Positions 7,738 to 60,824 are shown, counted from the first letter of the stretch. The stretch: DNA of 64,000 bases from an uncultured Gammaproteobacteria bacterium (GCA_963729605.1 CAVSNY010000007.1:1120001-1184000); one strand, 5' to 3'. Made by a program: numbers and translations. Notes: generated by a model from the sequence alone, not told the origin.

Positions 7738-9466
7738 TGTCCGCGTCATGCGACCGGCTGCAAGGTGGTGCTGTGCTGGCACATGCACCAGCCGGAATAT
7801 CGCGATCTGCTCAGCGGCGAATATCAGTTTCCGTGGACCTATCTGCACGCCATCAAGGATTACGTGGACATGGTGGCGCACCTCGAGCAGCGTGCCGGCC
7901 GCGCGGGCGGTGGTCAATTTCGCGCCGGTGTTGCTGGATCAGATCGACGATTACGCCGCGCAGATTCAGGTTACCTCAAGGACGCGCGACCGCTCTGCGC
8001 GATCCCTTGCTGGCGGCCTTGGATCGCGCCGGCCTTGCCGGTGCGCACCGAACAGCGTCTGGATTTGATCAAGATGTGCCTGCGCGCCAACCGCGGCCGC
8101 ATGATCGATCCCTATCCGCCGTTCAAACATCTCGCCGCAGATGGCGGATTGGTTGAAGGATGAACCGACGGCGGTCGAATATTTCAGCGAGCAATATCTC
8201 GGCGATCTGCTGGCGTGGTATCACCTGGCCTGGATGGGCGAGACGGTGCGGCGGCAAGACGCCCGCGTCGATCGGTTGATGAAAAAAGGCAGCGGCTACA
8301 CCTTGCATGAACGCCACGAACTGCTGATCGATGATCGGCGAGCTGGCGAGCGGCGTCATCGGCGCGTTACCGGGCCTTGGCCGAACGCGGCCAGATCGAA
8401 ATCTCGGTCAATCGCCGTACGCCCATCCCGATCGTGCCGTTGCTGATCGATCTCAGCAGCGCGCGACGAATCTTCGCCCGACGCGCCGTTGCCCTTGTTG
8501 CCGGCCTATCCCGACGGCGAGGCGCGCGCCCGCTGGCACATCGAACGGGGCATGGCCACTTTCGAGCGCCATTTCGGTTTTCGCCCGCGCGGCTGCTGGC
8601 CGTCGGAAGGCGGCGTGAGCGGCGCGGCGCTGAGTTTGTTCAATGAATACGGATTCCAATGGGCGGCCACCGGCGGCGGGGTATTGGGCAAATCGCTGCA
8701 AGCGGCCGGGATCGACGCGCGGCAAGACCGCGCACGCACATGGTATCGCCCCTATAAAATCACCGGCGGCGGCGACATCGCCTGTTTCTTCCGCGACGAC
8801 GCCTTGTCGGACAACTGTCGGGTTTCACCTACGCCACTTGGCACGGCGACGATGCGGTGGCCAATCTCGTGCATCAATTGGAAATCATCGCCGACCAGGT
8901 GGACGATCGGCAAACGTATCTGGTGCCCATCATTCTCGACGGCGAAAACGCCTGGGAGTATTATCCCAACAACGGCTACTATTTTTTAAACGCGCTTTAC
9001 CAAAAATTGTCCGCCCATCCGCGCCTCGAACTCACCACCTTCTCCGATTATCTGCGGAAGGGCGGACAAGCGGGCAGCTTGCCGCGCCTGACGGCGGGCA
9101 GCTGGGTGTACGGCACCTTCTCCACCTGGATCGGCGACGCCGACAAGAATCGCGCCTGGGATATGCTGGGCGCGGCCAAGCAGGCCTTCGATAAATCGCT
9201 GCGCTCCGGTTATCTGGTGGGCGACGCGCGCGCCGCCGCGGAGCATCAGCTCGCGGTATGCGAAGGCTCCGATTGGTGCTGGTGGTTCGGCGATTACAAT
9301 CCGGCGGCGACGCGTCAGCGATTTCGAGCGCCTGTACCGCCTGCACCTCGCCAATCTCTATCACCTGATCGGCGAGGAGCCGCCCGATTATTTGACCCAT
9401 GCCATCAGCCATGGCGGCGGCGGATCGCAGCATAGCGGTACCATGCGCCCGGGTCAGACGAGTTGA
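7737..9466 (+). pseudogene. Glycoside hydrolase family 57 protein with multiple frameshifts
   Basis: [53 protein letters not shown]; TGATG overlap with the glgC stop. Confidence 0.85.
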
Positions 9467-11320: not shown

Positions 11321-13883
11321 CTACAACCACTTCATGCAGCCCATCTCGAAGCGATGGCTGAGCAAGGTATGATGGGGATAGATGCGGATTTTATAGTATT
11401 GCAGGCCCGGCAACGGCGGCGCCAAGTCGAGCCGGTAGCGGGTTTCGCCTTGCGGATTGTGATCCACCGCTTGGAAGTGATGACTGGCTTGCACGACGAA
11501 CTCCTCGCTCTCCGCCATCGTGCCCACCAGACATTCCACCGTGACATCCTGCGCCTGCAAGCCGTTGAGGTTGACCGTCACCTCGAGCGGCAAGGTGTCG
11601 CCCGCCCGCATCTGCAGTTGGCCGGAATCGACGCGCTGTAGACTGACGCCCGCCCAGCGGGCGTTGACCTGGTTTTTCCAGTGGGCCAGTTCGCGGGCGG
11701 GGGCGTGATTCCGTTCCTGCATCGCGCGGTGCTGGCGGCTGGCGGGACCGTAGAAATGGGTCACGTAATCCATCAGCATGCGTTGCGCGTTGTAGCGCGG
11801 GATCAACGTCTTCATCGAGGTCTTGGACATCTTGACCCAGCGTTCCGGATAACCGTGGCCGTTGCGCTGGTAATAGGACGGAATGATTTCCTTCTCGAGG
11901 ATGTCCAGCAGCTCATTGCTTTCTTCGCGGTCGCGGAAGGCGGCGTCGTATTCCGGGCCGTGGGGGGTGATGGCCCAGCCGTTGTCGCCTGTAATAACCT
12001 TCGCCCCACCAGCCGTCCAGCACGCTGAGGTTGAGTACGCCGTTGATGCCGGCCTTCTCGCCCGAGGTGCCGCTGGCCTCCAGCGGATATTGCGGGGTGT
12101 TCAGCCACACGTCGACGCCGGTCACCAGTTTGCGGGCCAGCGACATGTCGTAGCCTTCGAGCAGAATGATCTTGCCCTCGAATTCCGGGCGGTGCGAGAG
12201 GTCGTGGATCTGCTTGATGAGGTGCTGCCCCGGGATGTCGTGGGGATGGGCCTTGCCCGCGAAGATCAACATCACCGGCCGCAACGGGTCGTTGAGCAGG
12301 CGCGCGAGGCGGCCCGGATCGGCGAACAGCAGGGTGGCGCGTTTGTAGGTCGCGAAACGCCGCGCGAAGCCTATCAGCAAGGTGTCGGTGTTGTCGGGGG
12401 AAAGGCAGGAGAGTGAGCCGCTTGATCTGGGTGGCGCTCAGGCCGCTGCGGCGATGCTGGCGCAAGGCCCGCTCGCGGGTCTCGTCGAGCAATTCCGACT
12501 TTAAGGATTGATGCAGGCTCCAGAAGCTGTAATCGGGGATTTCATCCACCCGCTCCCAGTATTTTTCATTGGAGAGTTGGTTGCGCCATTCGCCGCCGAA
12601 ACGCATGTCGAACAGGCTCATCCATTCCCGGGCGAGGAAGGTGGGTACGTGCACGCCGTTGGTGACGTAGCTCACCGGGTTTTCCGCGGCGGGGACTTCG
12701 GGCCAGATATAACCTTCCATCTGCGAGGCGATGCCGCCGTGGATGCGGCTGACGCCGTTGTGAAACCGCGAGCCGCGCAGCGCCAGGGCGGTTTGATTGA
12801 AGCCGCCTTCGTTGCCGGGACTGCTGCCCAGGGCCAGGAATTCCGCCATGCCGATCTTGAGCTGCTTGGCGTATTGGGAGAAATAGGTTTCCATCAACTG
12901 CCGGTCGAAGATGTCGTGGCCGGCGGGCACCGGGGTGTGGGTGGTGAAGACGGTGCCGGCGGCCACCAGTTCGCGGGCGGCGTCGAAGTCCATGCCCTGT
13001 TCCACTTTTTCGCGGCATGCGCTCGAGGATCTGGAAGGCCGCGTGGCCTTCGTTGATATGCCATACCGTGGGTTTGTAGCCCAAGGCGCGCAGCGCGCGT
13101 ACGCCGCCGATGCCCAGCACGATCTCCTGCTGGATGCGGGTGTGGATGTCGCCGCCGTAGAGTTGATAGGTGATGGAGCGGTCTTCGTCGGAGTTGTGCG
13201 GAACGTCGCTGTCGAGCAGGATAGAGCTTGATGTGGCCGGCGGTGACTTCCCACACCTTGAGCGTGACGCGCCGCTGGACGATGTCGACGTGGACGTAGA
13301 GTTCTTCTCCCTCGCCGTTGCGCGCCGGTTGCAAGGGCAATTGGTCGAAGTCGGTCCGCATGTAATGCGCGATCTGCTTGCCGTGTCCGTCGATGGTCTG
13401 GGTGAAATAACCCTGGCGGTACAGCATGCCCACCGCCACGAAGGGCAGGCCGAGGTCGCTGGCGGCCTTGCAGTGGTCGCCGGCCAGAATGCCGAGGCCG
13501 CCGGAGTAAATGGGCAGGCTCTCGTGAAAACCGAATTCGGCGCAGAAATAGGCGATCAAATCCTGCTTGGCGTCCAGATGCGGCACCACTTCGGGACGCA
13601 TGCCTTCATGGCGGTAGGTGTCGTAGGCGGACAAGGCGCGGTTGAAGTCCTCGACGAACACCCGGTCGTCGGCGGAGGCGTTGAGCCGCGCCTGCGAGAC
13701 GCGGCGCAGAAAGGTCTTGGGGTTGTGGCCGCATTGATCCCACAATTCGGGATCGAGTCGCACGAACAGCCCGCGTACCCGCCGGTCCCAGCTGTAAAGT
13801 AAATCGTTGGCCAGTTCCTCCAGGCGCCGCAGACGCGCCGGCAGCGCGGCTTGAACTTCAATGCTAAAACGTGTCCCCATCAT
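11321..13883 (-). pseudogene. glgP: Alpha-glucan (glycogen) phosphorylase, about 4 frameshifts
   Basis: [73 protein letters not shown]. Confidence 0.88.
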
Positions 13884-52579: not shown

Positions 52580-54466
52580 ATGAGCAGTAATTACGACGCC
52601 GCCGCCATCGAGGTGCTGACCGGCCTGGACCCCGTGCGCAAGCGTCCCGGCATGTATACCGACACCGCTCGTCCCAATCACCTCGCCCAAGAGGTGATCG
52701 ACAACAGCGTGGACGAGGCCATGGCCGGCCACGCCCGCCGTATCGAGGTCATACTTTATAAAGACGGTTCGTTGGAGGTGAAGGACGATGGCCGCGGCAT
52801 GCCGGTGGACGTCCATCCCGGCGAGCGGGTGTCGGGGGTGGAGGTGATCCTCACCCGCCTGCACGCCGGCGGCAAATTCTCCAACAAGAATTATCGCTTC
52901 TCCGGCGGCCTGCACGGGGTGGGGGTCTCGGTGGTCAACGCCTTGTCGAAAGAGTTGCAAGTCCGGGTCCGGCGCGGCGGCCAGGAATACCGGATGACCT
53001 TCGCCCATGGCGAGAAAGCTTCCGACTTGGAAGTGGTGGGTCAGGTCGGCAAAAACAACACCGGCACCACGCTGCGCTTCTGGCCCGAGCCCAAATATTT
53101 CGACACGCCGAAATTCCTGGTCCCCAAACTCAAGCACATCCTGCGCGCCAAAGCGGTGTTGTGCCCCGGTCTGCACGTGAAGTTTTTCGACGAGGCCGGC
53201 GGCGAACAGGAAGAGTGGCAGTATCAGAACGGGCTCAAGGATTATCTGCTCGACGCCCTGCACGGTTTCGAGCGGTTGCCGGAAGAACCGTTTACCGGTG
53301 TCATGGAAGGCAATCACGAGGCCGCCGAATGGGCGGTGGTGTGGCTGCCGGCGGGCGGCGAACTGGTCGCCGAGAGTTACGTCAATCTGATCCCGACCCC
53401 GCAGGGCGGCACCCATGTCAACGGTCTGCGCACCGGCCTCACCGAGGCGGTGCGGGAATTTTGCGAATTCCGCAATCTGCTGCCGCGCGGCGTGCGGCTC
53501 GCGCCGGAAGACGTGTGGGAGCGTTGCGCGCACGTGTTGTCGGTGAAGATGCAGGAGCCGCAGTTCAGCGGCCAGACCAAGGACCGCTTGTCGTCGCGCG
53601 AGTGCGCGGCCTTCGTCTCCGGTGTGGTGAAGGATGCCTTCAGTCTGTGGCTCAATCAGCACATCGAGGCCGGCGAGCGCATCGCCTTGTATGCGATCAA
53701 TAACGCCCAGGCGCGGTTGCGCGCGGATAAAAAAGTGGTGCGTAAAAAAGTCACCAGCGGGCCGGCGCTGCCGGGCAAGCTGGCCGATTGCAGTTCGCAG
53801 GATTTGGCGCGCACCGAATTGTTTTTGGTGGAAGGCGATTCGGCCGGCGGTTCGGCCAAGCAGGCGCGCAACCGGGACTTCCAAGCCGTGATGCCGCTGC
53901 GCGGCAAAATTCTCAACACCTGGGAGGTCGATCCCGCCGAGGTGCTGGGTTCGCAGGAGGTACACGACATCTCGGTGGCGGTCGGCGTCGAACCCGGTTC
54001 CGATAATCTGCAAGGACTGCGTTACGGCAAGATATGCATCCTCGCCGACGCCGATTCCGACGGCGCGCATATCGCGACCCTGCTCTGCGCGCTGTTCCTG
54101 CGCCACTTCCGCGCGTTGGTGACTGCGGGCCACGTGTTCGTCGCCATGCCGCCGCTGTATCGCATCGACGTGGGCAAAGAGGTGTTCTACGCCCTCGACG
54201 ACGCCGAGAAGGTGGGTGTGCTCGATCGCATCGCGGCGGACAAATTGAAAGGCAAGATCAACGTGCAGCGCTTCAAGGGGCTGGGCGAGATGAATCCTCT
54301 GCAATTACGCGAAACCACCGTCGATCCGGACACGCGGCGTCTGGTGCAACTCACCGTCGCGGCCAGCGACGAGACCGATGCCTTGATGGATATGCTGCTC
54401 GCCAAGCGCCGCGCCAACGATCGCCGCGACTGGCTGGAGAAGAAAGGTAATCTGGCCTTGGTATAA
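52580..54466 (+). CDS. parE: DNA topoisomerase IV subunit B
   Basis: EVIDNSVDE, LHAGGKF, SGGLHGVG, EGDSAGG, PLRGKILN, ADADSDG, RFKGLGEM. Confidence 0.97.
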   Translation: MSSNYDAAAIEVLTGLDPVRKRPGMYTDTARPNHLAQEVIDNSVDEAMAGHARRIEVILYKDGSLEVKDDGRGMPVDVHPGERVSGVEVILTRLHAGGKFSNKNYRFSGGLHGVGVSVVNALSKELQVRVRRGGQEYRMTFAHGEKASDLEVVGQVGKNNTGTTLRFWPEPKYFDTPKFLVPKLKHILRAKAVLCPGLHVKFFDEAGGEQEEWQYQNGLKDYLLDALHGFERLPEEPFTGVMEGNHEAAEWAVVWLPAGGELVAESYVNLIPTPQGGTHVNGLRTGLTEAVREFCEFRNLLPRGVRLAPEDVWERCAHVLSVKMQEPQFSGQTKDRLSSRECAAFVSGVVKDAFSLWLNQHIEAGERIALYAINNAQARLRADKKVVRKKVTSGPALPGKLADCSSQDLARTELFLVEGDSAGGSAKQARNRDFQAVMPLRGKILNTWEVDPAEVLGSQEVHDISVAVGVEPGSDNLQGLRYGKICILADADSDGAHIATLLCALFLRHFRALVTAGHVFVAMPPLYRIDVGKEVFYALDDAEKVGVLDRIAADKLKGKINVQRFKGLGEMNPLQLRETTVDPDTRRLVQLTVAASDETDALMDMLLAKRRANDRRDWLEKKGNLALV

Positions 54467-54649
54467 ATGCCGTCGGCCCGCCGGCGCGGGCTTCATTTAG
54501 CCCCCGTGGCGGCGCGCTTCTGTGGCATGTATGCCTTTATTTCAGGCCTTTTTATTGCCGACCGATCTAATCGGTTTTTCTATCTTTAAGAGTTAGTTAG
54601 CTTTTTTGTTTCCATAACCTACCATCCCCGTCATCATTCCAGCACAACG

Positions 54650-54676
54650 TAAAGGTTTAATTTCAAGGGCCGACAT
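54650..54676 (+). promoter_or_regulatory. Putative sigma28 (FliA) promoter
   Basis: TAAAGGTT-N11-GCCGACAT, 70 bp upstream of the MCP ATG. Confidence 0.65.
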
Positions 54677-54745
54677 CCTGTGGGGTGGAAGGGGAGATGA
54701 ACTCCCTCCATATGCCAGCGCGATGTAATATGGAAGGCTCTTAAA

Positions 54746-56368
54746 ATGATCGCAAATTTTTTATCCAATCTCAGCTGGAAGAAAAAGATTTTTGGCGTAG
54801 CCGGTTTGTTCATGCTGGGCATCATCATCGAAGCCCTGGTGGGAGGCTACACCATTATGACGCAGAACCACGCCATGCAGCAGGTTTTGCAAGCCTCGCA
54901 GAGCAAGGTTGACGCCGCCATGACCGCACGCACCGCCATTTTGGAAGTGGGGCGGGCGCAAGCCGAATTGATCAGTTACGCCGACCCCCAACAAATCCGC
55001 GCCTCGTCGGTGAACGCCATCCGCGCCTCTTCGGTATTGGAGGAAGCCGTGCAAGGTCTGACCCTGGCCTTGCCCGAGGATGCCATGGTGGCGGAGTTGG
55101 CGAAACTGGTTCAGGAAATCAAACCCGGCAAGATGGCGGTGATCAAGGCCGCCCGCGCCAATGATGATGCGCACGCCCTGGAATTGGACGCGGCGATGCG
55201 GGAACCCTTGCAGCGCATCGAAGAACTGTCGCGTAACTTGGTCGAGGCGCAGCGCAGCATGCTCGACGATTCGATGCAGCGGCAAGAGCAACAGGCGCGT
55301 TCGACGATATGGTTGTTGAGCATCTTCGTCAGCTTGGGCGTGATCGTTGGGATCATCATCAGTTTTGCCGCCGCTCATCTCATGACCAAACCGCTGGCGG
55401 TATTGGATCGCTCCATGGAGGCCTTGGCGAAAGGCGATCTATCCATTCAACTCCCCGGCGCGGGCCGGGATGAGATCGGACGCACCATCGGTTCCATGTC
55501 CAGCATGGTGCGCGATCTTCACGCGCTGGTGGAAAAAGTGTACGAGGGCGCGGGCAAGCTGTCCGTCCAAGCCGATAACGTGACCCGGACCGCCGACGAC
55601 ATCAAAGGCGGTTCGGCCACGCTGCATGAATCGGTGAAGGATATCAAACACGATGCCGAAGTGGTGCTGCAGGCGGCCGCCGCGGCCTTGGGGCAATTGG
55701 CGGCGGCCGGTAGCGCCGCTCAGTTCACCTCGGAAAATTCGACGCGGGTCGCCAAAGAAATAGACGACACGGTGGCCGGCTTTAAACGTTTCCAGGAACA
55801 GATGGCGTCCACCGCCAAGGTGACGCGCGAGTTGGCGCGTACCGCCGAAACGATCACCTCGATTACCAACACGATTCGCGATATCTCTTCGCAAACCAAT
55901 CTGCTGGCCTTAAACGCGGCCATCGAGGCCGCCCGCGCCGGCGAACAGGGCCGCGGTTTCGCGGTGGTGGCGGACGAGGTGCGTAACCTGGCCAAGCGCA
56001 CGGAAGATGCCACGGCGGAGATTTCCACCTTGGTGGAAAGCATCGGCGACAATATCGATCACACGGTGGGTTTGCTGGAAACCACCATGCAACAGGCCAA
56101 TCAAAACGTCGAACGTTTGCAAAAAGTCGCCGACGATACCACTAAGGGCAATGTGCAGGTGCGCGCCATGCAGGAAAGCATCGGCGGCATAGAGAATTTG
56201 ATGAATGATCAGGAGCAGGCCATCGCCGGTATTCATGCCGCGGTGGGTAATTTGTTCGCGCTCAGCACGGATACCAACACGCAGACCGAGTTGTTGAACG
56301 AGTTGGCCGGCAATCTGAATGTGGCGGCGGGCGAACTCAAGTTGGTGGTGGGAAAATTCAAGTTGTAG
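54746..56368 (+). CDS. Methyl-accepting chemotaxis protein (2TM, helical periplasmic domain, HAMP)
   Basis: [34 protein letters not shown] hairpin; two TM segments. Confidence 0.95.
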
Positions 56369-56407
56369 CCGGTGAACGGCGTTGCTGTATTGCGAGGAGG
56401 AGTAATT

Positions 56408-57394
56408 ATGAAATCGGGAATGATGATCGCGCTGTTGGGATTGGTGATGAGTCTGACGGTGCACGCCGCTCCAAGTGATAGTTATTTGCGGCCGGAGAAG
56501 GTGCCGGCGCCGCCGAATAATCTGGTTACGCCGGAGCGCGTCGCCTTGGGCAAGGCCCTGTTTTTCGATCCGCGGCTCTCGGGCTCCAATTGGATCAGTT
56601 GCGCGACCTGTCATAACCCCGCGCTGGGCTGGTCCGACGCCCTGCCCACCGCCATCGGTCACGGCATGAAAATTCTGGGTCGCGCCACCCCCACGATATT
56701 GAATACCGCCTACCAGCGTAAACAGATGTGGGACGGCCGCTTCCGCACCCTGGAAGAACAGGCGCTCGCACCGATCGAGGCGGATGTGGAGATGAGCCAG
56801 AATTTGGATGAGGTGGTCGCGGAACTCAAGGAGATCGCCGGCTATCATGCCTTGTTCGAAAAGGCCTACCCCGGCGAAGGTATCACTAAGGACACCATCG
56901 CCAAGGCGATCGCCAGTTTTGAACGCACCATCGTCTCCAGCGACGCGCCTTTTGACCGCTGGATCAAGGGTGACGAAAAGGCCATGAGCGATTCCGCCAA
57001 ACAGGGTTTCGCGCTGTTCGAAGGCAAGGCCAATTGCACGGCCTGTCATCAAGGGTTCAATTTCATCGATGACGGGTTTCACAATATCGGTTTGAAGGGC
57101 AATCAGGATGCGGGCCGCCATGCTGTGGTACCGGTCGCCGTGATGATGGGCGCCTTCAAGACTCCGACCTTGCGTGACGTCGCGCTCACCGCGCCTTATA
57201 TGCACAACGGTATGTACAATACCCTTGCTGAAGTGGTGGCCCACTACAACCGGGGCGGCGATGTCAAAGACAATCTCGATCCCAATATGAAGCCGCTTAA
57301 TCTGACGGATCAGGAGCAAAAAGATATCGTGGAATTTTTGAAGGCGTTGACCGGTGAACAGATGGCGGTCACCGTACCGCACTTGCCGCAATAA
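56408..57394 (+). CDS. Diheme cytochrome c peroxidase / MauG-family enzyme
   Basis: Signal peptide, LGKALFFDPRLS, CATCH, WDGR..LEEQA, CTACH, FKTPTLR..TAPYMHNG..VVAHY. Confidence 0.9.
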   Translation: MKSGMMIALLGLVMSLTVHAAPSDSYLRPEKVPAPPNNLVTPERVALGKALFFDPRLSGSNWISCATCHNPALGWSDALPTAIGHGMKILGRATPTILNTAYQRKQMWDGRFRTLEEQALAPIEADVEMSQNLDEVVAELKEIAGYHALFEKAYPGEGITKDTIAKAIASFERTIVSSDAPFDRWIKGDEKAMSDSAKQGFALFEGKANCTACHQGFNFIDDGFHNIGLKGNQDAGRHAVVPVAVMMGAFKTPTLRDVALTAPYMHNGMYNTLAEVVAHYNRGGDVKDNLDPNMKPLNLTDQEQKDIVEFLKALTGEQMAVTVPHLPQ

Positions 57395-57410
57395 ATGGAG
57401 GAGAGGTGTG

Positions 57411-57752
57411 ATGCGTGCGATGAAAGCGAAAGTGACGGTTATTTTATGCGTGATGACGCTGGCGGCGGGTGCCGCCGGTGCGGCGGAGTATACGGTATCG
57501 CAGCATAATAAGGCCTTTGAAAAAGACGGCGCCAAGATCGAAAAATTATCCATCAAGGTGGGTGACACCGTCCATTTCAAAAATCTCGATCCTTGGTTTC
57601 ACAATGTGTTTTCTTTGTCCGATATTAAGACCTTCGACTTGGGTTCCTATCCGCAGGGACAGCAAAAGTCCGTGGTGTTCGATAAGGCCGGTACGGCGGA
57701 GATCGAGTGCGCCATCCATCCGCAGATGATTCTGGAGTTGGAGGTCAAATAA
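57411..57752 (+). CDS. Amicyanin/plastocyanin-like cupredoxin
   Basis: Signal peptide; VGDTV.F.N.D..FHNV and C-A-I-H-P-Q-M type-1 copper ligand loop. Confidence 0.88.
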   Translation: MRAMKAKVTVILCVMTLAAGAAGAAEYTVSQHNKAFEKDGAKIEKLSIKVGDTVHFKNLDPWFHNVFSLSDIKTFDLGSYPQGQQKSVVFDKAGTAEIECAIHPQMILELEVK

Positions 57753-58412
57753 ATGCGGGCAAGGTTGTACTTGGCAGCCGCGGCCGCCTTGCTGGCTCAG
57801 CTGGCGCTGTGCGCCGGCGCCATGGCCACCGACAGCCGCGAGAGGGTCGAGATGGAAATCTCCAAACCGGCGGTGCGCGGCGCCATCGTGTTCAAGCACT
57901 ATTGCACGTTGTGCCACGGCGAGGTGGCCGATGGCACGGCGCGCGCTTCCAAACTTTACGGCGAATTGAATTTAACCATCTCTCCACAGTCGGTCGTCGA
58001 GTACGAAAAAATCATTCGCGGCGGTGGCGTGGCGGTGGCCAGATCGCCCTTCATGCCGCCGTGGGAGGGCGAGCTGTCCGAGGAGCAGATCAGCGACGTG
58101 ATCGCTTATCTGGCCTTGGTGGGCAACCCGGTGCGGCGCGGCGAGGTGGTGTTCAAGACCAATTGCGTGTTGTGTCACGGCGTCAAGGGCGACGGCAAGG
58201 GACGCGCCTCGGTGCTCTACGATCCGCCGCCCGCCAATCTCACGCTCAGTGACAAAAACGACCTGTATAAAGAGATGATCATCACCAACGGCGGCGCGGC
58301 CATGGGCCGTTCGGCGGTGATGCCGGTGTGGGGTGAGCAATTGTCGCCGCAGGAAATCAAGGATGTGGTGGCTTATTTACGCACGATTCTGCTGGTGCCG
58401 CCGCCGGAGTGA
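57753..58412 (+). CDS. Periplasmic diheme class I cytochrome c
   Basis: Signal peptide; CTLCH..MPPW and CVLCH..MPVW tandem domains. Confidence 0.9.
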   Translation: MRARLYLAAAAALLAQLALCAGAMATDSRERVEMEISKPAVRGAIVFKHYCTLCHGEVADGTARASKLYGELNLTISPQSVVEYEKIIRGGGVAVARSPFMPPWEGELSEEQISDVIAYLALVGNPVRRGEVVFKTNCVLCHGVKGDGKGRASVLYDPPPANLTLSDKNDLYKEMIITNGGAAMGRSAVMPVWGEQLSPQEIKDVVAYLRTILLVPPPE

Positions 58413-58568
58413 AGTCCGTCCCATCGACCCGGGCCGCGGCGCGGCTCGGGTTTTTCGCGGCCAAGCCCGTCCCGCGATCCCCTCCACGCCCGTCCTGATC
58501 ATGCCGTATAATGCCGCTGCCCGCGGCCCGCCTTGAGGTCCTCGGCATAATGCGACAGGTAGTCAGAC

Positions 58569-60824
58569 ATGAGCGGCACAGATGTATTGAACGTGGAAGG
58601 CGTCGAACGCCTGCCGTTAAAAGTATTCACCGAAAAGGCGTACCTGGACTATTCCATGTACGTGATTCTCGACCGGGCCCTGCCGCACATCGGCGACGGC
58701 CTCAAACCGGTGCAGCGCCGCATCGTGTACGCCATGTCGGAGCTGGGACTGTCGGCGGCGGCGAAATATAAAAAATCCGCGCGCACCGTGGGCGACGTGC
58801 TCGGCAAGTTTCATCCCCACGGCGATTCGGCCTGTTACGAGGCCATGGTGTTGATGGCCCAGTCCTTCTCTTATCGCTATCCGCTGATCGACGGCCAAGG
58901 CAACTGGGGTTCGCCGGACGATCCGAAATCCTTCGCTGCCATGCGTTACACCGAGGCGCGTCTCGCGCCTTACGCCGAGGTGCTGCTGAGCGAACTGGGC
59001 CAGGGCACGGTGGAGTGGGTGGCCAATTTCGACGGCACCCTCGACGAGCCGGCGATGTTGCCGGCGCGCCTGCCCAATGTCCTGCTCAACGGCGCCACCG
59101 GCATCGCGGTGGGCATGGCCACCGACATCCTGCCCCACAACGCCCGCGAAATCGCGGCGGCCTGCATCCGTCTATTGGACGAGCCGCAGGCCGGCGTCGC
59201 GCAGTTATGCGAACACGTGCTGGGCCCGGATTTTCCCACCGAGGCCGAGATCATCACCGCGCGCGCCGATCTGCTGCAGATGTACGAGACCGGCAACGGT
59301 TCGGTACGGCTGCGCGCCCGTTATGAAATGGAAGACGGCGACATCGTGATCACCGCGCTGCCGTATCAAGTGTCCGGCTCGAAAATTTTGGAGCAGATCG
59401 CGGCGCAGATGACGGCCAAGAAATTGCCGATGGTGGAGGACCTGCGCGACGAATCCGATCATGAAAATCCCACGCGGCTGGTGATCGTCACCCGTTCCAA
59501 CCGGGTGGACAGCGCAGCGTTGATGGCCCATTTGTTCGCGACCACCGATTTGGAGCGCAGCTACCGGGTGAATTTCAACGTCATCGGCCTCGACGGCCGG
59601 CCGCGGGTGAAGAATTTGCGCGAGATGCTGACGGAGTGGCTGGAGTTTCGTACCAAGACCGTGCGCCGCCGTTTGCAATATCGCCTGGATAAAGTGTTGC
59701 AACGTCTGCACATCCTCGACGGCTTGTTGATCGCCTATCTCAATCTCGACGAAGTGATCCGCATCATCCGTTACGAGGACGAACCCAAGCCGGCTTTGAT
59801 GGCGCGCTTCGCTTTAAGCGAGATCCAGGCCGACGCCATTTTGGATTTGAAACTGCGCCACCTCGCCAAGCTGGAAGAGATGAAAATCCGCGGCGAACAG
59901 GCCGACCTCGCCAAGGAACGCGATGGTCTGGAACGTACCCTCGGTTCGAAGAAACGCTTGCAGGCGCTGATCCGCGCCGAGCTCGAAGCCGACGCCGAAA
60001 AATACGGCGACCCGCGCCGTTCGCCGCTGGTGGCGCGCGGCGCGGCGCAGGCCTTTTCGGCGGACAGCCTGGTGCCCAGCGAACCGACCACCGTGGTGTT
60101 GTCGCAAATGGGCTGGGTGCGCGCGGCCAAGGGCCATGATATCGATCCGGCCAGTTTGAGTTACAAGGCGGGCGACGGTTACGCGGTCGCCGCGCGCGGC
60201 CGCAGCAATCAGTTGGCGGTGTTCATCGACTCCACGGGACGTACCTATTCCTTGCCCGCCCACAGCCTGCCCTCGGCGCGCGGTCAGGGCGAGCCGCTCA
60301 CCGGCCGGCTCAACCCGCCGCCCGGCGCGGTGTTCGCGGGGCTGATGCTGGGCAATCCCGAGGATCACTACCTGCTCGCCAGCGACGCCGGTTACGGCTT
60401 CGTGGTCAAGCTGGCCGATCTCTACGCCAAGAACAAAAGCGGCAAGGCGGTGCTGGCCTTGCCCAAGGGCGCGCGGGTACTGCCGCCCACGCCGGTGCGC
60501 GACCCGGCCGGCGATGTGGTGGCGGCGGTGAACAATCTCGGCCGGATGCTGGTGGTGCCGTTGAGCGAATTGGCCGCCCTCGCCAAGGGCAAGGGCGACA
60601 AGATCATCGGTATTCCGGGGCCGAAACTGGCGGCGCGCGAAGAATACGTGGTGGCCATGACGGCGTTGCCCGCATACGGCACGCTGATCATCCATGCCGG
60701 CCAGCGTCACATGAGTTTGAAGCCGGCGGATTTGCAGGCCTACGCCGGAGAACGCGGCCGGCGCGGTACGGCCTTGCCGCGCGGTTTTCAAAAGGTCGAC
60801 CGCCTGTCGGTGGAAACGGCCTGA
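58569..60824 (+). CDS. parC: DNA topoisomerase IV subunit A
   Basis: [28 protein letters not shown]. Confidence 0.97.

Follow-up and report, generated by a model that had tools for sequence, protein, structure and literature searches.

Why does a chemoreceptor gene stand at the head of a row of genes for secreted redox proteins, and do the receptor and these proteins work together? The question is raised by a locus in a 64,000-nucleotide stretch of DNA from an uncultured gammaproteobacterium (GCA_963729605.1, CAVSNY010000007.1:1120001-1184000), hereafter the window, from whose first letter positions are counted; the source genome (G000) is 3.48 Mb long and 94.5% complete. Four genes, all on the + strand, lie there between parE and parC, with intergenic spacing of 39, 16 and 0 nucleotides (nt), and encode a methyl-accepting chemotaxis protein (MCP), a diheme CCP_MauG-superfamily enzyme, a small cupredoxin and a diheme cytochrome c. 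The gene coordinates agree in all of this with a first-pass annotation of the same DNA, which had read four tightly spaced, co-oriented genes inserted between parE and parC. The genomic association between the MCP's sensor domain and the redox genes is strong both ways and survives swaps of the output domain, and because of this two-way association and the output swaps we argue for a joint function of sensor and redox chain. The first-pass interpretation is thereby supported in part. The module exists and is widespread, and to the extent of our search it is undescribed. Its four genes are as follows.

54746-56368, + strand: MCP, 540 amino acids (aa), with a first membrane helix, a periplasmic sensor at about residues 36-190, a second membrane helix, a HAMP domain at 210-259 and a signaling domain at 335-502
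56408-57394, + strand: diheme CCP_MauG-superfamily enzyme with Tyr at the axial-ligand position, 328 aa from an ATG behind GAGGAGG
57411-57752, + strand: small, secreted, amicyanin-like type-1 copper cupredoxin, 113 aa
57753-58412, + strand: secreted diheme class-I cytochrome c, 219 aa, whose start abuts the cupredoxin stop

Association of the sensor with the redox genes

A neighborhood check across genomes had been set beforehand as the refutation test of the first-pass proposal, which held that the MCP reads the state of a periplasmic redox relay, and the MCP proved to be conserved beside the redox genes. A scan with a cupredoxin pattern, in which each species was represented by one genome, yielded at least 600 stretches, at least 587 of them confirmed, and the best 80 were taken as the loci counted here. 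The MauG-like enzyme adjoins the cupredoxin in 72 of these 80 loci and cytochrome c does so in 71, while the sensor profile detects a homolog of this MCP's sensor in 42. At a distance of at most 700 nt from the cluster, the sensor is found on an MCP at 38 loci and on another protein at 3, a different MCP is found at 17 and neither at 22; the same four classes hold 27, 1, 12 and 11 of the 51 loci that have at least 2 kb on both sides. The 22 loci with neither include five that are truncated, four with a different, longer cupredoxin protein and two (L040 and L076) with a remoter MCP.

In the other direction, 19 of 400 genomes searched from the class each have one strong match to the sensor profile (E 1.4e-44 or better), and every one of the 19 shares a contig with the cupredoxin gene, at a distance of at most 3.4 kb. 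A strong cupredoxin match is present in 27 of the 400 genomes, 19 of which also carry the sensor. The position of the MCP gene varies, being upstream of the redox genes, downstream of them, divergent from them or between them. In Acidobacteriota, the sensor is part of a hybrid histidine kinase (L029) or of PAS kinases (L036 and L041), again beside enzyme and cupredoxin, and the pairing is kept in varied gene orders and with varied outputs across Acidobacteriota and Gammaproteobacteria, the latter including Burkholderiales-type records. The other neighbors at the Acidobacteriota kinase loci (YceD, PlsX, a SnoaL-like protein, a TPR protein and a molybdopterin enzyme) are housekeeping or unannotated and gave no clue. 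By sequence, the sensor forms a family of its own, with 221 clusters that match at E 1e-30 or better out of 1.84 billion representatives; when the 12 longest representatives and two of typical length were scanned, nine turned out to be MCPs, four to be kinases and one to be a GAF-GGDEF protein (diguanylate cyclase). Records of cultured strains with the module come from Marinobacter, Catenovulum, Limnobacter, Pleionea and Glaciecola.

The genes msrP and msrQ follow the cluster or sit inside it in 10 of the 80 loci, and apart from them no other gene family was found to be widely shared near the cluster in these loci. The pair, which consists of a gene for a molybdopterin oxidoreductase and one for a ferric-reductase-like membrane protein, directly follows the cytochrome gene or separates the enzyme gene from the cupredoxin gene (L034, L040, L045, L048, L051, L053, L054, L070, L081 and L088); it was identified with Pfam at L034, to which the other nine loci are linked by BLAST clustering. 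Several loci depart from the usual gene content. Two enzyme-cupredoxin pairs are found in each of L030 and L044, and a second enzyme gene in L093. A 485-codon frame in L047 (6506-7960), with no MCP nearby, matches both cytochrome c and the enzyme and may be a fusion. In four Acidobacteriota loci (L097-L100), the cupredoxin profile matches a longer protein (frames of 270-346 codons) near a HAMP histidine kinase and with no enzyme beside it, which is a different arrangement.

The encoded proteins and their transcription

The MCP is identified as such by its signaling domain (PF00015 MCPsignal, 120.3 bits) and its HAMP domain (PF00672, 33.5 bits). Its sensor falls below the cut-off of the four-helix-bundle family 4HB_MCP_1 (PF12729; 17.8 bits, cut-off 27), and an AlphaFold2 model of residues 1-205 is nevertheless a four-helix bundle with a mean predicted local distance difference test (pLDDT) value of 92.8. 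Its helices span residues 11-77, 81-108, 113-137 and 141-204, and the first and last of them traverse hydrophobic stretches that we read as two membrane helices. A Foldseek search with the modeled sensor returns generic four-helix-bundle sensor domains of kinases and chemoreceptors, the best being 4k0d at E 2e-3, and no match at E 0.001 or better. Residues R85, I92, E100, L105, L118, P127, I133 and A144 are conserved in at least 90% of the aligned sensors, and N139 and D141 are frequent; in the model, R85 adjoins one membrane-distal loop, and N139 and D141 are in or beside the other. The sensor alignment has no conserved Trp, Cys or His and likewise no conserved Tyr or Met, and the periplasmic part of this MCP copy is without any Trp or Cys. 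Copper sensing by the MCP was set aside as the least likely signal, given a sensor with no conserved His, Cys or Met.

The enzyme belongs to the CCP_MauG family (PF03150, 201.5 bits), and all 28 aligned sequences share C65, C68, H69, C210, C213, H214, W108, Q118, P122 and E128. Its scores are below the cut-offs of the models for MauG (TIGR03791; 355.4 bits, cut-off 443.85) and for MbnH (TIGR04039; 226.8 bits, cut-off 362.85). The closest solved relative is MacA (4aal, 8.8e-70) and MauG (3l4m, 5.8e-24) is only the 17th best, a ranking of solved structures that is the same whether it is made with the sequence, with the family profile or with the AlphaFold2 model (pLDDT 76.7). Tyr280 aligns to chain residue 294 of MauG (query 45-283 against chain 11-297), which is flagged as significant by the PDB title 'Y294H-MauG', and to a Met of MacA. 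The latter we take to be the axial ligand, on the grounds that the Pseudomonas enzyme has Met275 and that the alignment shows an offset of 17 residues. By alignment, the enzyme would hence have Tyr as axial ligand and would lack the His/Met ligation of a canonical peroxidase. The first-pass label 'MauG-like' thus holds for the residue at the position of the Met ligand and of MauG residue 294 and does not hold for the score, which is under the cut-off of the MauG model.

Y280 is invariant in the 72 enzymes encoded beside a cupredoxin, as is W108, and W75 and W185 are each kept in 71; the canonical loop His (H85) is unconserved (21 of 72). The residues Y280, W75 and W185 correspond to Met, Gly and Tyr, respectively, in the three other cytochrome c peroxidase (CCP) copies of the genome. 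Because Y280 is invariant and the three paralogs have Met, the enzyme, judged by these residues, is distinct from the genome's housekeeping Met-type peroxidases, whose genes are outside the window (contig positions C7:486674-487600, C7:396851-397771 and C5:28549-29544).

Genes for methylamine dehydrogenase (MADH), MbnP and methanethiol oxidase (SBP56), which the first-pass annotation had found missing from the window, were not found in the genome either. No light (PF02975) or heavy (PF06433) chain of MADH was found in the 94.5%-complete assembly, in searches whose controls were both silent, and searches of the window and of the same assembly for MbnP-like (TIGR04052) and SBP56 genes came up empty. 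The PF02975 search does work, as it found the light chain in 13 of the 400 class genomes (one of which, G305, is unpublished), none of them with the cupredoxin. Conversely, no MADH gene was found in the 27 cupredoxin-bearing genomes among the 400, and no cupredoxin-profile match lies near any MADH gene in the 400.

The cupredoxin is recognized as a type-1 copper protein by PF00127 Copper-bind (25.2 bits, cut-off 21.2) and by the ligands H64, C100, H103 and M106, which are invariant in 26 of 26 relatives and align to those of amicyanin. Amicyanin (1sfd) is also the best solved match of the cupredoxin profile (E 6e-6, with the C-x2-H-x2-M loop aligned), and the score against the amicyanin model TIGR02657 is 25.3 bits, below the cut-off of 110.2. 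The sole Trp, W62, is Phe or Tyr in relatives. NCBI sources name these relatives 'plastocyanin', 'methylamine utilization protein' or 'mauL'; identity with MauL, for which these source names are the only support, is tentative, and the part of PMC2474590 that was available mentions MauL just as an accessory protein. The cytochrome c matches Cytochrome_CBB3 over two stretches (81.5 bits) and a ccoP-like model at 68 bits, under the cut-off. The translations of all three redox proteins, read by eye, start with hydrophobic leaders that end in Ala-rich segments. The sequence contains two CxxCH motifs in the enzyme and two more in the cytochrome, four in all, and one His/Cys/His/Met set, which are the counts given by the first-pass annotation.

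The order parE-MCP-enzyme-cupredoxin-cytochrome-parC is also found in the relatives G002 and G005, and the contig of G001 begins within the MCP gene. Remoter records keep the order as well, L024 and L025 with both flanks, and L022 with both flanks and an extra run of cytochrome genes. In the sister genus g2 (G004 and G008), parE directly adjoins parC with no cluster between them, and the place that the cluster takes is thus vacant in close relatives, through insertion or loss. Differences are also seen within the interval. One to several additional diheme cytochrome c genes stand in tandem between the cluster and parC in L022, L024 and L025. An additional open frame of at most 234 codons, the C-terminal part of which looks PDZ-like by eye, lies between parE and the MCP gene in L018 of G005 (12244-13531). 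About 20 codons of the start of the cytochrome gene are left between the cupredoxin gene and parC in L017 of G003 (8484-8646), an assembly that is 75% complete and in which the missing cytochrome gene may be an assembly fault. The features that flank or may punctuate the four genes in the window are as follows.

52580-54466, + strand: parE (NCBIfam model passed, 1018 bits)
54560-54586, + strand: terminator-like hairpin and T-run, 3' of parE and 5' of the promoter-like site (consensus scan)
54650-54676, + strand: FliA (sigma-28)-like site, TAAAGGTT-N11-GCCGACAT, ending 69 nt 5' of the MCP ATG
58426-58456, + strand: terminator-like hairpin of 12 pairs followed by UUUUU, in the gap between the cytochrome gene and parC (folding only)
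58569-60824, + strand: parC (NCBIfam model passed, 1124 bits)

The site upstream of the MCP gene matches the FliA consensus, which we take to be TAAAGTTT-N11-GCCGATAA and which was also quoted by the first-pass annotation, at 13 of 16 positions. A loose regular expression gave 79 mostly random matches and was replaced by a scored scan, which found 75 sites with at least 13 of 16 matches in the 3.48 Mb (both strands, spacer 10-12). By arithmetic from this genome frequency, which is not a statistical test, about 0.003 such sites are expected on the correct strand of the 280-nt upstream stretch. About a dozen of the 75 are near the fliA/flagellin region or other MCP genes, judged by contig position alone in unannotated regions; another MCP gene has a 14/16 site and a flagellin gene has a 12/16 site. 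A TAAAG..TT box is at the equivalent position in G002 and G003 and is weaker in G005. The genome encodes FliA (272.8 bits, above the cut-off), a flagellin and only seven MCP signaling domains. FliA control of the operon is no more than plausible: relatives retain the -35 box of the site, but a 13/16 site is not unique in the genome.

The 124 nt after parE fold with a z-score of -2.63. The fold of 58413-58470 has -27.3 kcal/mol, with a z-score of only -0.97 in a G+C-rich stretch, and the hairpin at 58426-58456 is absent from the list of the consensus terminator scan. Two scans marked no promoter-like or terminator-like site in the gap between the MCP and enzyme genes. Short contigs from rhizosphere metatranscriptome runs, which are 90-99% alike and come from relatives, cover parts of all four genes; runs X2 to X4 hold only such short contigs, uncovered gene parts are uninformative, and such contigs cannot prove a single transcript. 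The enzyme-cupredoxin junction is bridged by a contig from an RNA library (X3), and the cupredoxin-cytochrome junction by one from X2. A further X2 contig skips 141 nt within the cytochrome c gene (window 58207-58349); it comes from a relative, its shorter side has only 24 letters and it may be an artifact. A single operon probably spans the unit, from a FliA-type promoter to a terminator before parC, and hence would be co-expressed with motility; that all four genes share a transcript is what we infer.

A proposed sensing unit and its alternatives

Based on these results, we tentatively propose, with a probability of about 0.45, that the four genes form a periplasmic oxidant- or redox-sensing unit in which the MCP sensor reports the state of the redox chain to chemotaxis. 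The MauG-like diheme enzyme would react with a periplasmic oxidant, most likely hydrogen peroxide, and would trade electrons with the amicyanin-like cupredoxin and the diheme cytochrome c, which may link it to the respiratory chain. The four-helix-bundle sensor would tell the chemotaxis machinery what state this chain is in, most likely by binding one of the three redox proteins, with the cupredoxin as our first guess, and in other lineages it would feed histidine kinases or a diguanylate cyclase instead. Peroxide is favored as the oxidant because the enzyme keeps the peroxide-activating pocket Q118/P122/E128 and because msrPQ, which we take to be a periplasmic methionine sulfoxide repair system, joins 10 loci. 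Sensing by protein contact is favored because none of the residues conserved in the sensor is redox-reactive. The identity of the oxidant, the direction of electron flow and this contact are all what we infer. A more specific version, in which the sensor reads whether a soluble blue copper protein is oxidized or reduced, with a Tyr-ligated, peroxide-activated enzyme oxidizing this protein and the respiratory chain re-reducing it via the cytochrome c, would be a new mode of signal input; it is possible, if doubtful.

Structure prediction of the MCP's periplasmic domain with the cupredoxin, which the first-pass annotation had suggested as a check, gave a weakly positive answer. A sensor dimer folded with the cupredoxin scores 0.49 (0.49, 0.48 and 0.51 in separate runs) and the best of three controls scores 0.00; at least 97% of the contacts are shared between runs, and the pLDDT of the partner is 89 or more. 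In the calibration, the mark was passed by 116 among 157 solved complexes and by 2 among 215 mismatched pairs, and at scores of 0.60 or under by only 18 of the solved complexes and by both mismatches; the run on the present proteins, in which the cupredoxin was the sole partner folded, used its own alignments and a two-plus-one chain design, unlike the calibration. The model lends weak support to a contact between sensor and cupredoxin.

Several findings weigh or may weigh against the proposed unit. At 0.49, the score falls where a pass is wrong more often than it is right, save for a guess that already had good prior odds. In a mirror-tree comparison of pairwise distances over 35 loci, in which phylogeny and the shortness of the cupredoxin are confounders, the sensor may be closer to the enzyme (r 0.555) and the cytochrome (0.52) than to the cupredoxin (0.39), and partial values given the signaling domain, which have the same confounders, are 0.41, 0.33 and 0.27, respectively. 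Different MCP sensors of at least three recurring families are used at 17 loci, so that no one conserved protein contact can hold throughout. The 11 of 51 informative loci that have no adjacent MCP or sensor indicate that the redox genes can work without one. The locus of G003 has the same parE-to-parC order with MCP, enzyme and cupredoxin genes, and its cytochrome gene is gone. Both its sequence and its fold place the enzyme closer to ordinary peroxidases than to MauG. Finally, no metatranscriptome contig from a firmly RNA library bridges the MCP-enzyme junction, and the sole contig that does is from X1, a run whose RNA label is guessed.

A strong rival to the proposed unit is that the sensor binds a small molecule, a substrate or product of the redox chain, without any protein contact, and that the genes travel together over a shared compound, as nitrate sensors and reductases do; we regard it, too, as a doubtful but real possibility. 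It would fit the nearest folds, which are the ligand-binding four-helix-bundle domains of MCP2201, Tsr, PcaY and Vc1313, and the conserved charged residues R85, E100 and D141, which could form a ligand site. A shared chemical also explains more easily than contact why several unrelated sensor families pair with the redox genes, and the kinase genes that are divergent from possibly controlled genes (L036 and L041) fit ordinary induction by a substrate. It is harder to reconcile with the finding of the sensor in no place but next to the cupredoxin (19 of 19 genomes), which is unusually strict for a plain ligand sensor, with the lack of a conserved redox-reactive residue in the sensor and, weakly, with the predicted complex at 0.49 against 0.00 for the controls. 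In addition, we know of no four-helix sensor bundle that binds peroxide.

Two other explanations are less likely. The enzyme could be a protein-modifying oxidase like MauG or MbnH that gives the sensor domain or the cupredoxin a protein-derived cofactor for sensing. The Tyr at the axial position in 72 of 72 enzymes, a hallmark of MauG, MbnH and BthA according to the available part of PMC6405878, would suit such a role; W75 and W185, which are missing from the genome's canonical CCPs, could relay holes to the surface, and no other candidate substrate gene is conserved nearby. The periplasmic part of the sensor, however, has no conserved Trp, Tyr, Cys, His or Met to be modified, W62 of the cupredoxin is replaced by Phe or Tyr in relatives and the module is also found without any sensor, and we give this explanation a small chance. 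That the MCP and the redox genes are unrelated neighbors, an ordinary FliA-dependent chemoreceptor gene beside a spare peroxidase system, is very unlikely because of the association counts of sensor and cupredoxin. MCP genes commonly have FliA promoters, cupredoxin and cytochrome donors are common for peroxidases and the MCP-enzyme junction is unbridged by RNA-library contigs, all of which chance neighbors would explain. They would not explain why all 19 sensor matches are beside the cupredoxin, why one of only seven MCP genes in the genome is found here or why the pairing spans Gammaproteobacteria and Acidobacteriota with differing gene orders and output domains.

How bacteria steer relative to peroxide or other periplasmic oxidants is poorly understood, and to our knowledge the known redox or energy receptors act from the cytoplasmic side or carry their own cofactor. 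The association described here, of a cofactor-free sensor family that stands only beside a heme-copper chain in about 5% of the sampled class genomes (19 of 400) and in Acidobacteriota, points to an undescribed sensing of oxidants or of redox state outside the cell membrane. If the more specific version with the copper protein as the read-out is true, the cell would gauge the periplasmic oxidant load against its own reducing power and would pass the result to chemotaxis, two-component or cyclic di-GMP signaling, depending on lineage. Orphan MauG-like enzymes, whose substrates are a standing question, gain a candidate physiological role, and the module is a concrete system for gene-deletion tests, which are feasible since cultured strains carry it.

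Comparison with known systems

The present enzyme shares with MauG of Paracoccus denitrificans, which acts in the biosynthesis of tryptophan tryptophylquinone, the diheme CCP_MauG architecture, Tyr280 at the place of MauG residue 294, the Q-x3-P-x5-E spacing and the inter-heme Trp; it differs in its score below the TIGR03791 cut-off and in a genome where MADH genes were not found. The mau cluster of Methylobacterium holds a mauG-mauL pair, which is resembled by the small cupredoxin beside the present enzyme, whose relatives bear the source names 'mauL' and 'methylamine utilization protein'. Amicyanin, the best solved relative of the cupredoxin, has the same C-x2-H-x2-M ligand loop, but the present protein is under the TIGR02657 cut-off and has no MADH partner.

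The best matches of the enzyme are the periplasmic diheme peroxidases, such as those of Geobacter (MacA), Paracoccus pantotrophus and Pseudomonas aeruginosa (template-modeling (TM) scores of 0.74-0.77, 36-43% identity). Bacterial diheme peroxidases work with small cupredoxin or cytochrome partners. Unlike the canonical peroxidases, the present enzyme has Tyr for Met, an unconserved loop His and a dedicated sensor attached. MbnH (6e1c), which the enzyme profile matches at E 3e-57 with a TM score of 0.74, and BthA (6nx0) belong to the superfamily's Tyr-ligated enzymes, whose roles are unknown or other than peroxidase, as far as described in the available part of PMC6405878. The present enzyme differs from MbnH in being under the TIGR04039 cut-off and in a genome without a detected MbnP-like gene. 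In the main text of the same superfamily survey (PMC6405878), as far as it was available, the words 'chemotaxis' and 'cupredoxin' are both missing.

A literature search for MauG or cytochrome c peroxidase together with a chemoreceptor, chemotaxis or a cupredoxin, which left subscription journals mostly uncovered, returned nothing relevant, and we found no paper that describes the layout, in line with the first-pass remark that no characterized system with it is known. In Campylobacter jejuni, docA, which encodes a CCP homolog, is directly upstream of docB, which encodes the MCP Tlp10; according to the accessible part of a review, the CcP loci make no contribution to peroxide resistance, and docA and docB matter for chick colonization (PMC3156733). 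The likeness is a peroxidase homolog beside a chemoreceptor gene, and it is drawn by description and not by sequence; the difference is that no cupredoxin or cytochrome partner is reported in that part of the text (PMC3156733). Within the limits of this source, docA-docB is the nearest published parallel and is itself uncharacterized.

For the sensor, the nearest models are the partner-sensing four-helix-bundle receptors, Tar and the fold hits QseE-QseG (9m08) and LytS-XylFII (5xsj), with which it shares the fold class; its conserved polar residues are in or beside the membrane-distal loops. Tar senses via the maltose-binding protein. Whereas the partners in these systems are solute-binding proteins or lipoproteins, the proposed partner of the present sensor would, on the weakly supported predicted complex, be a redox protein.

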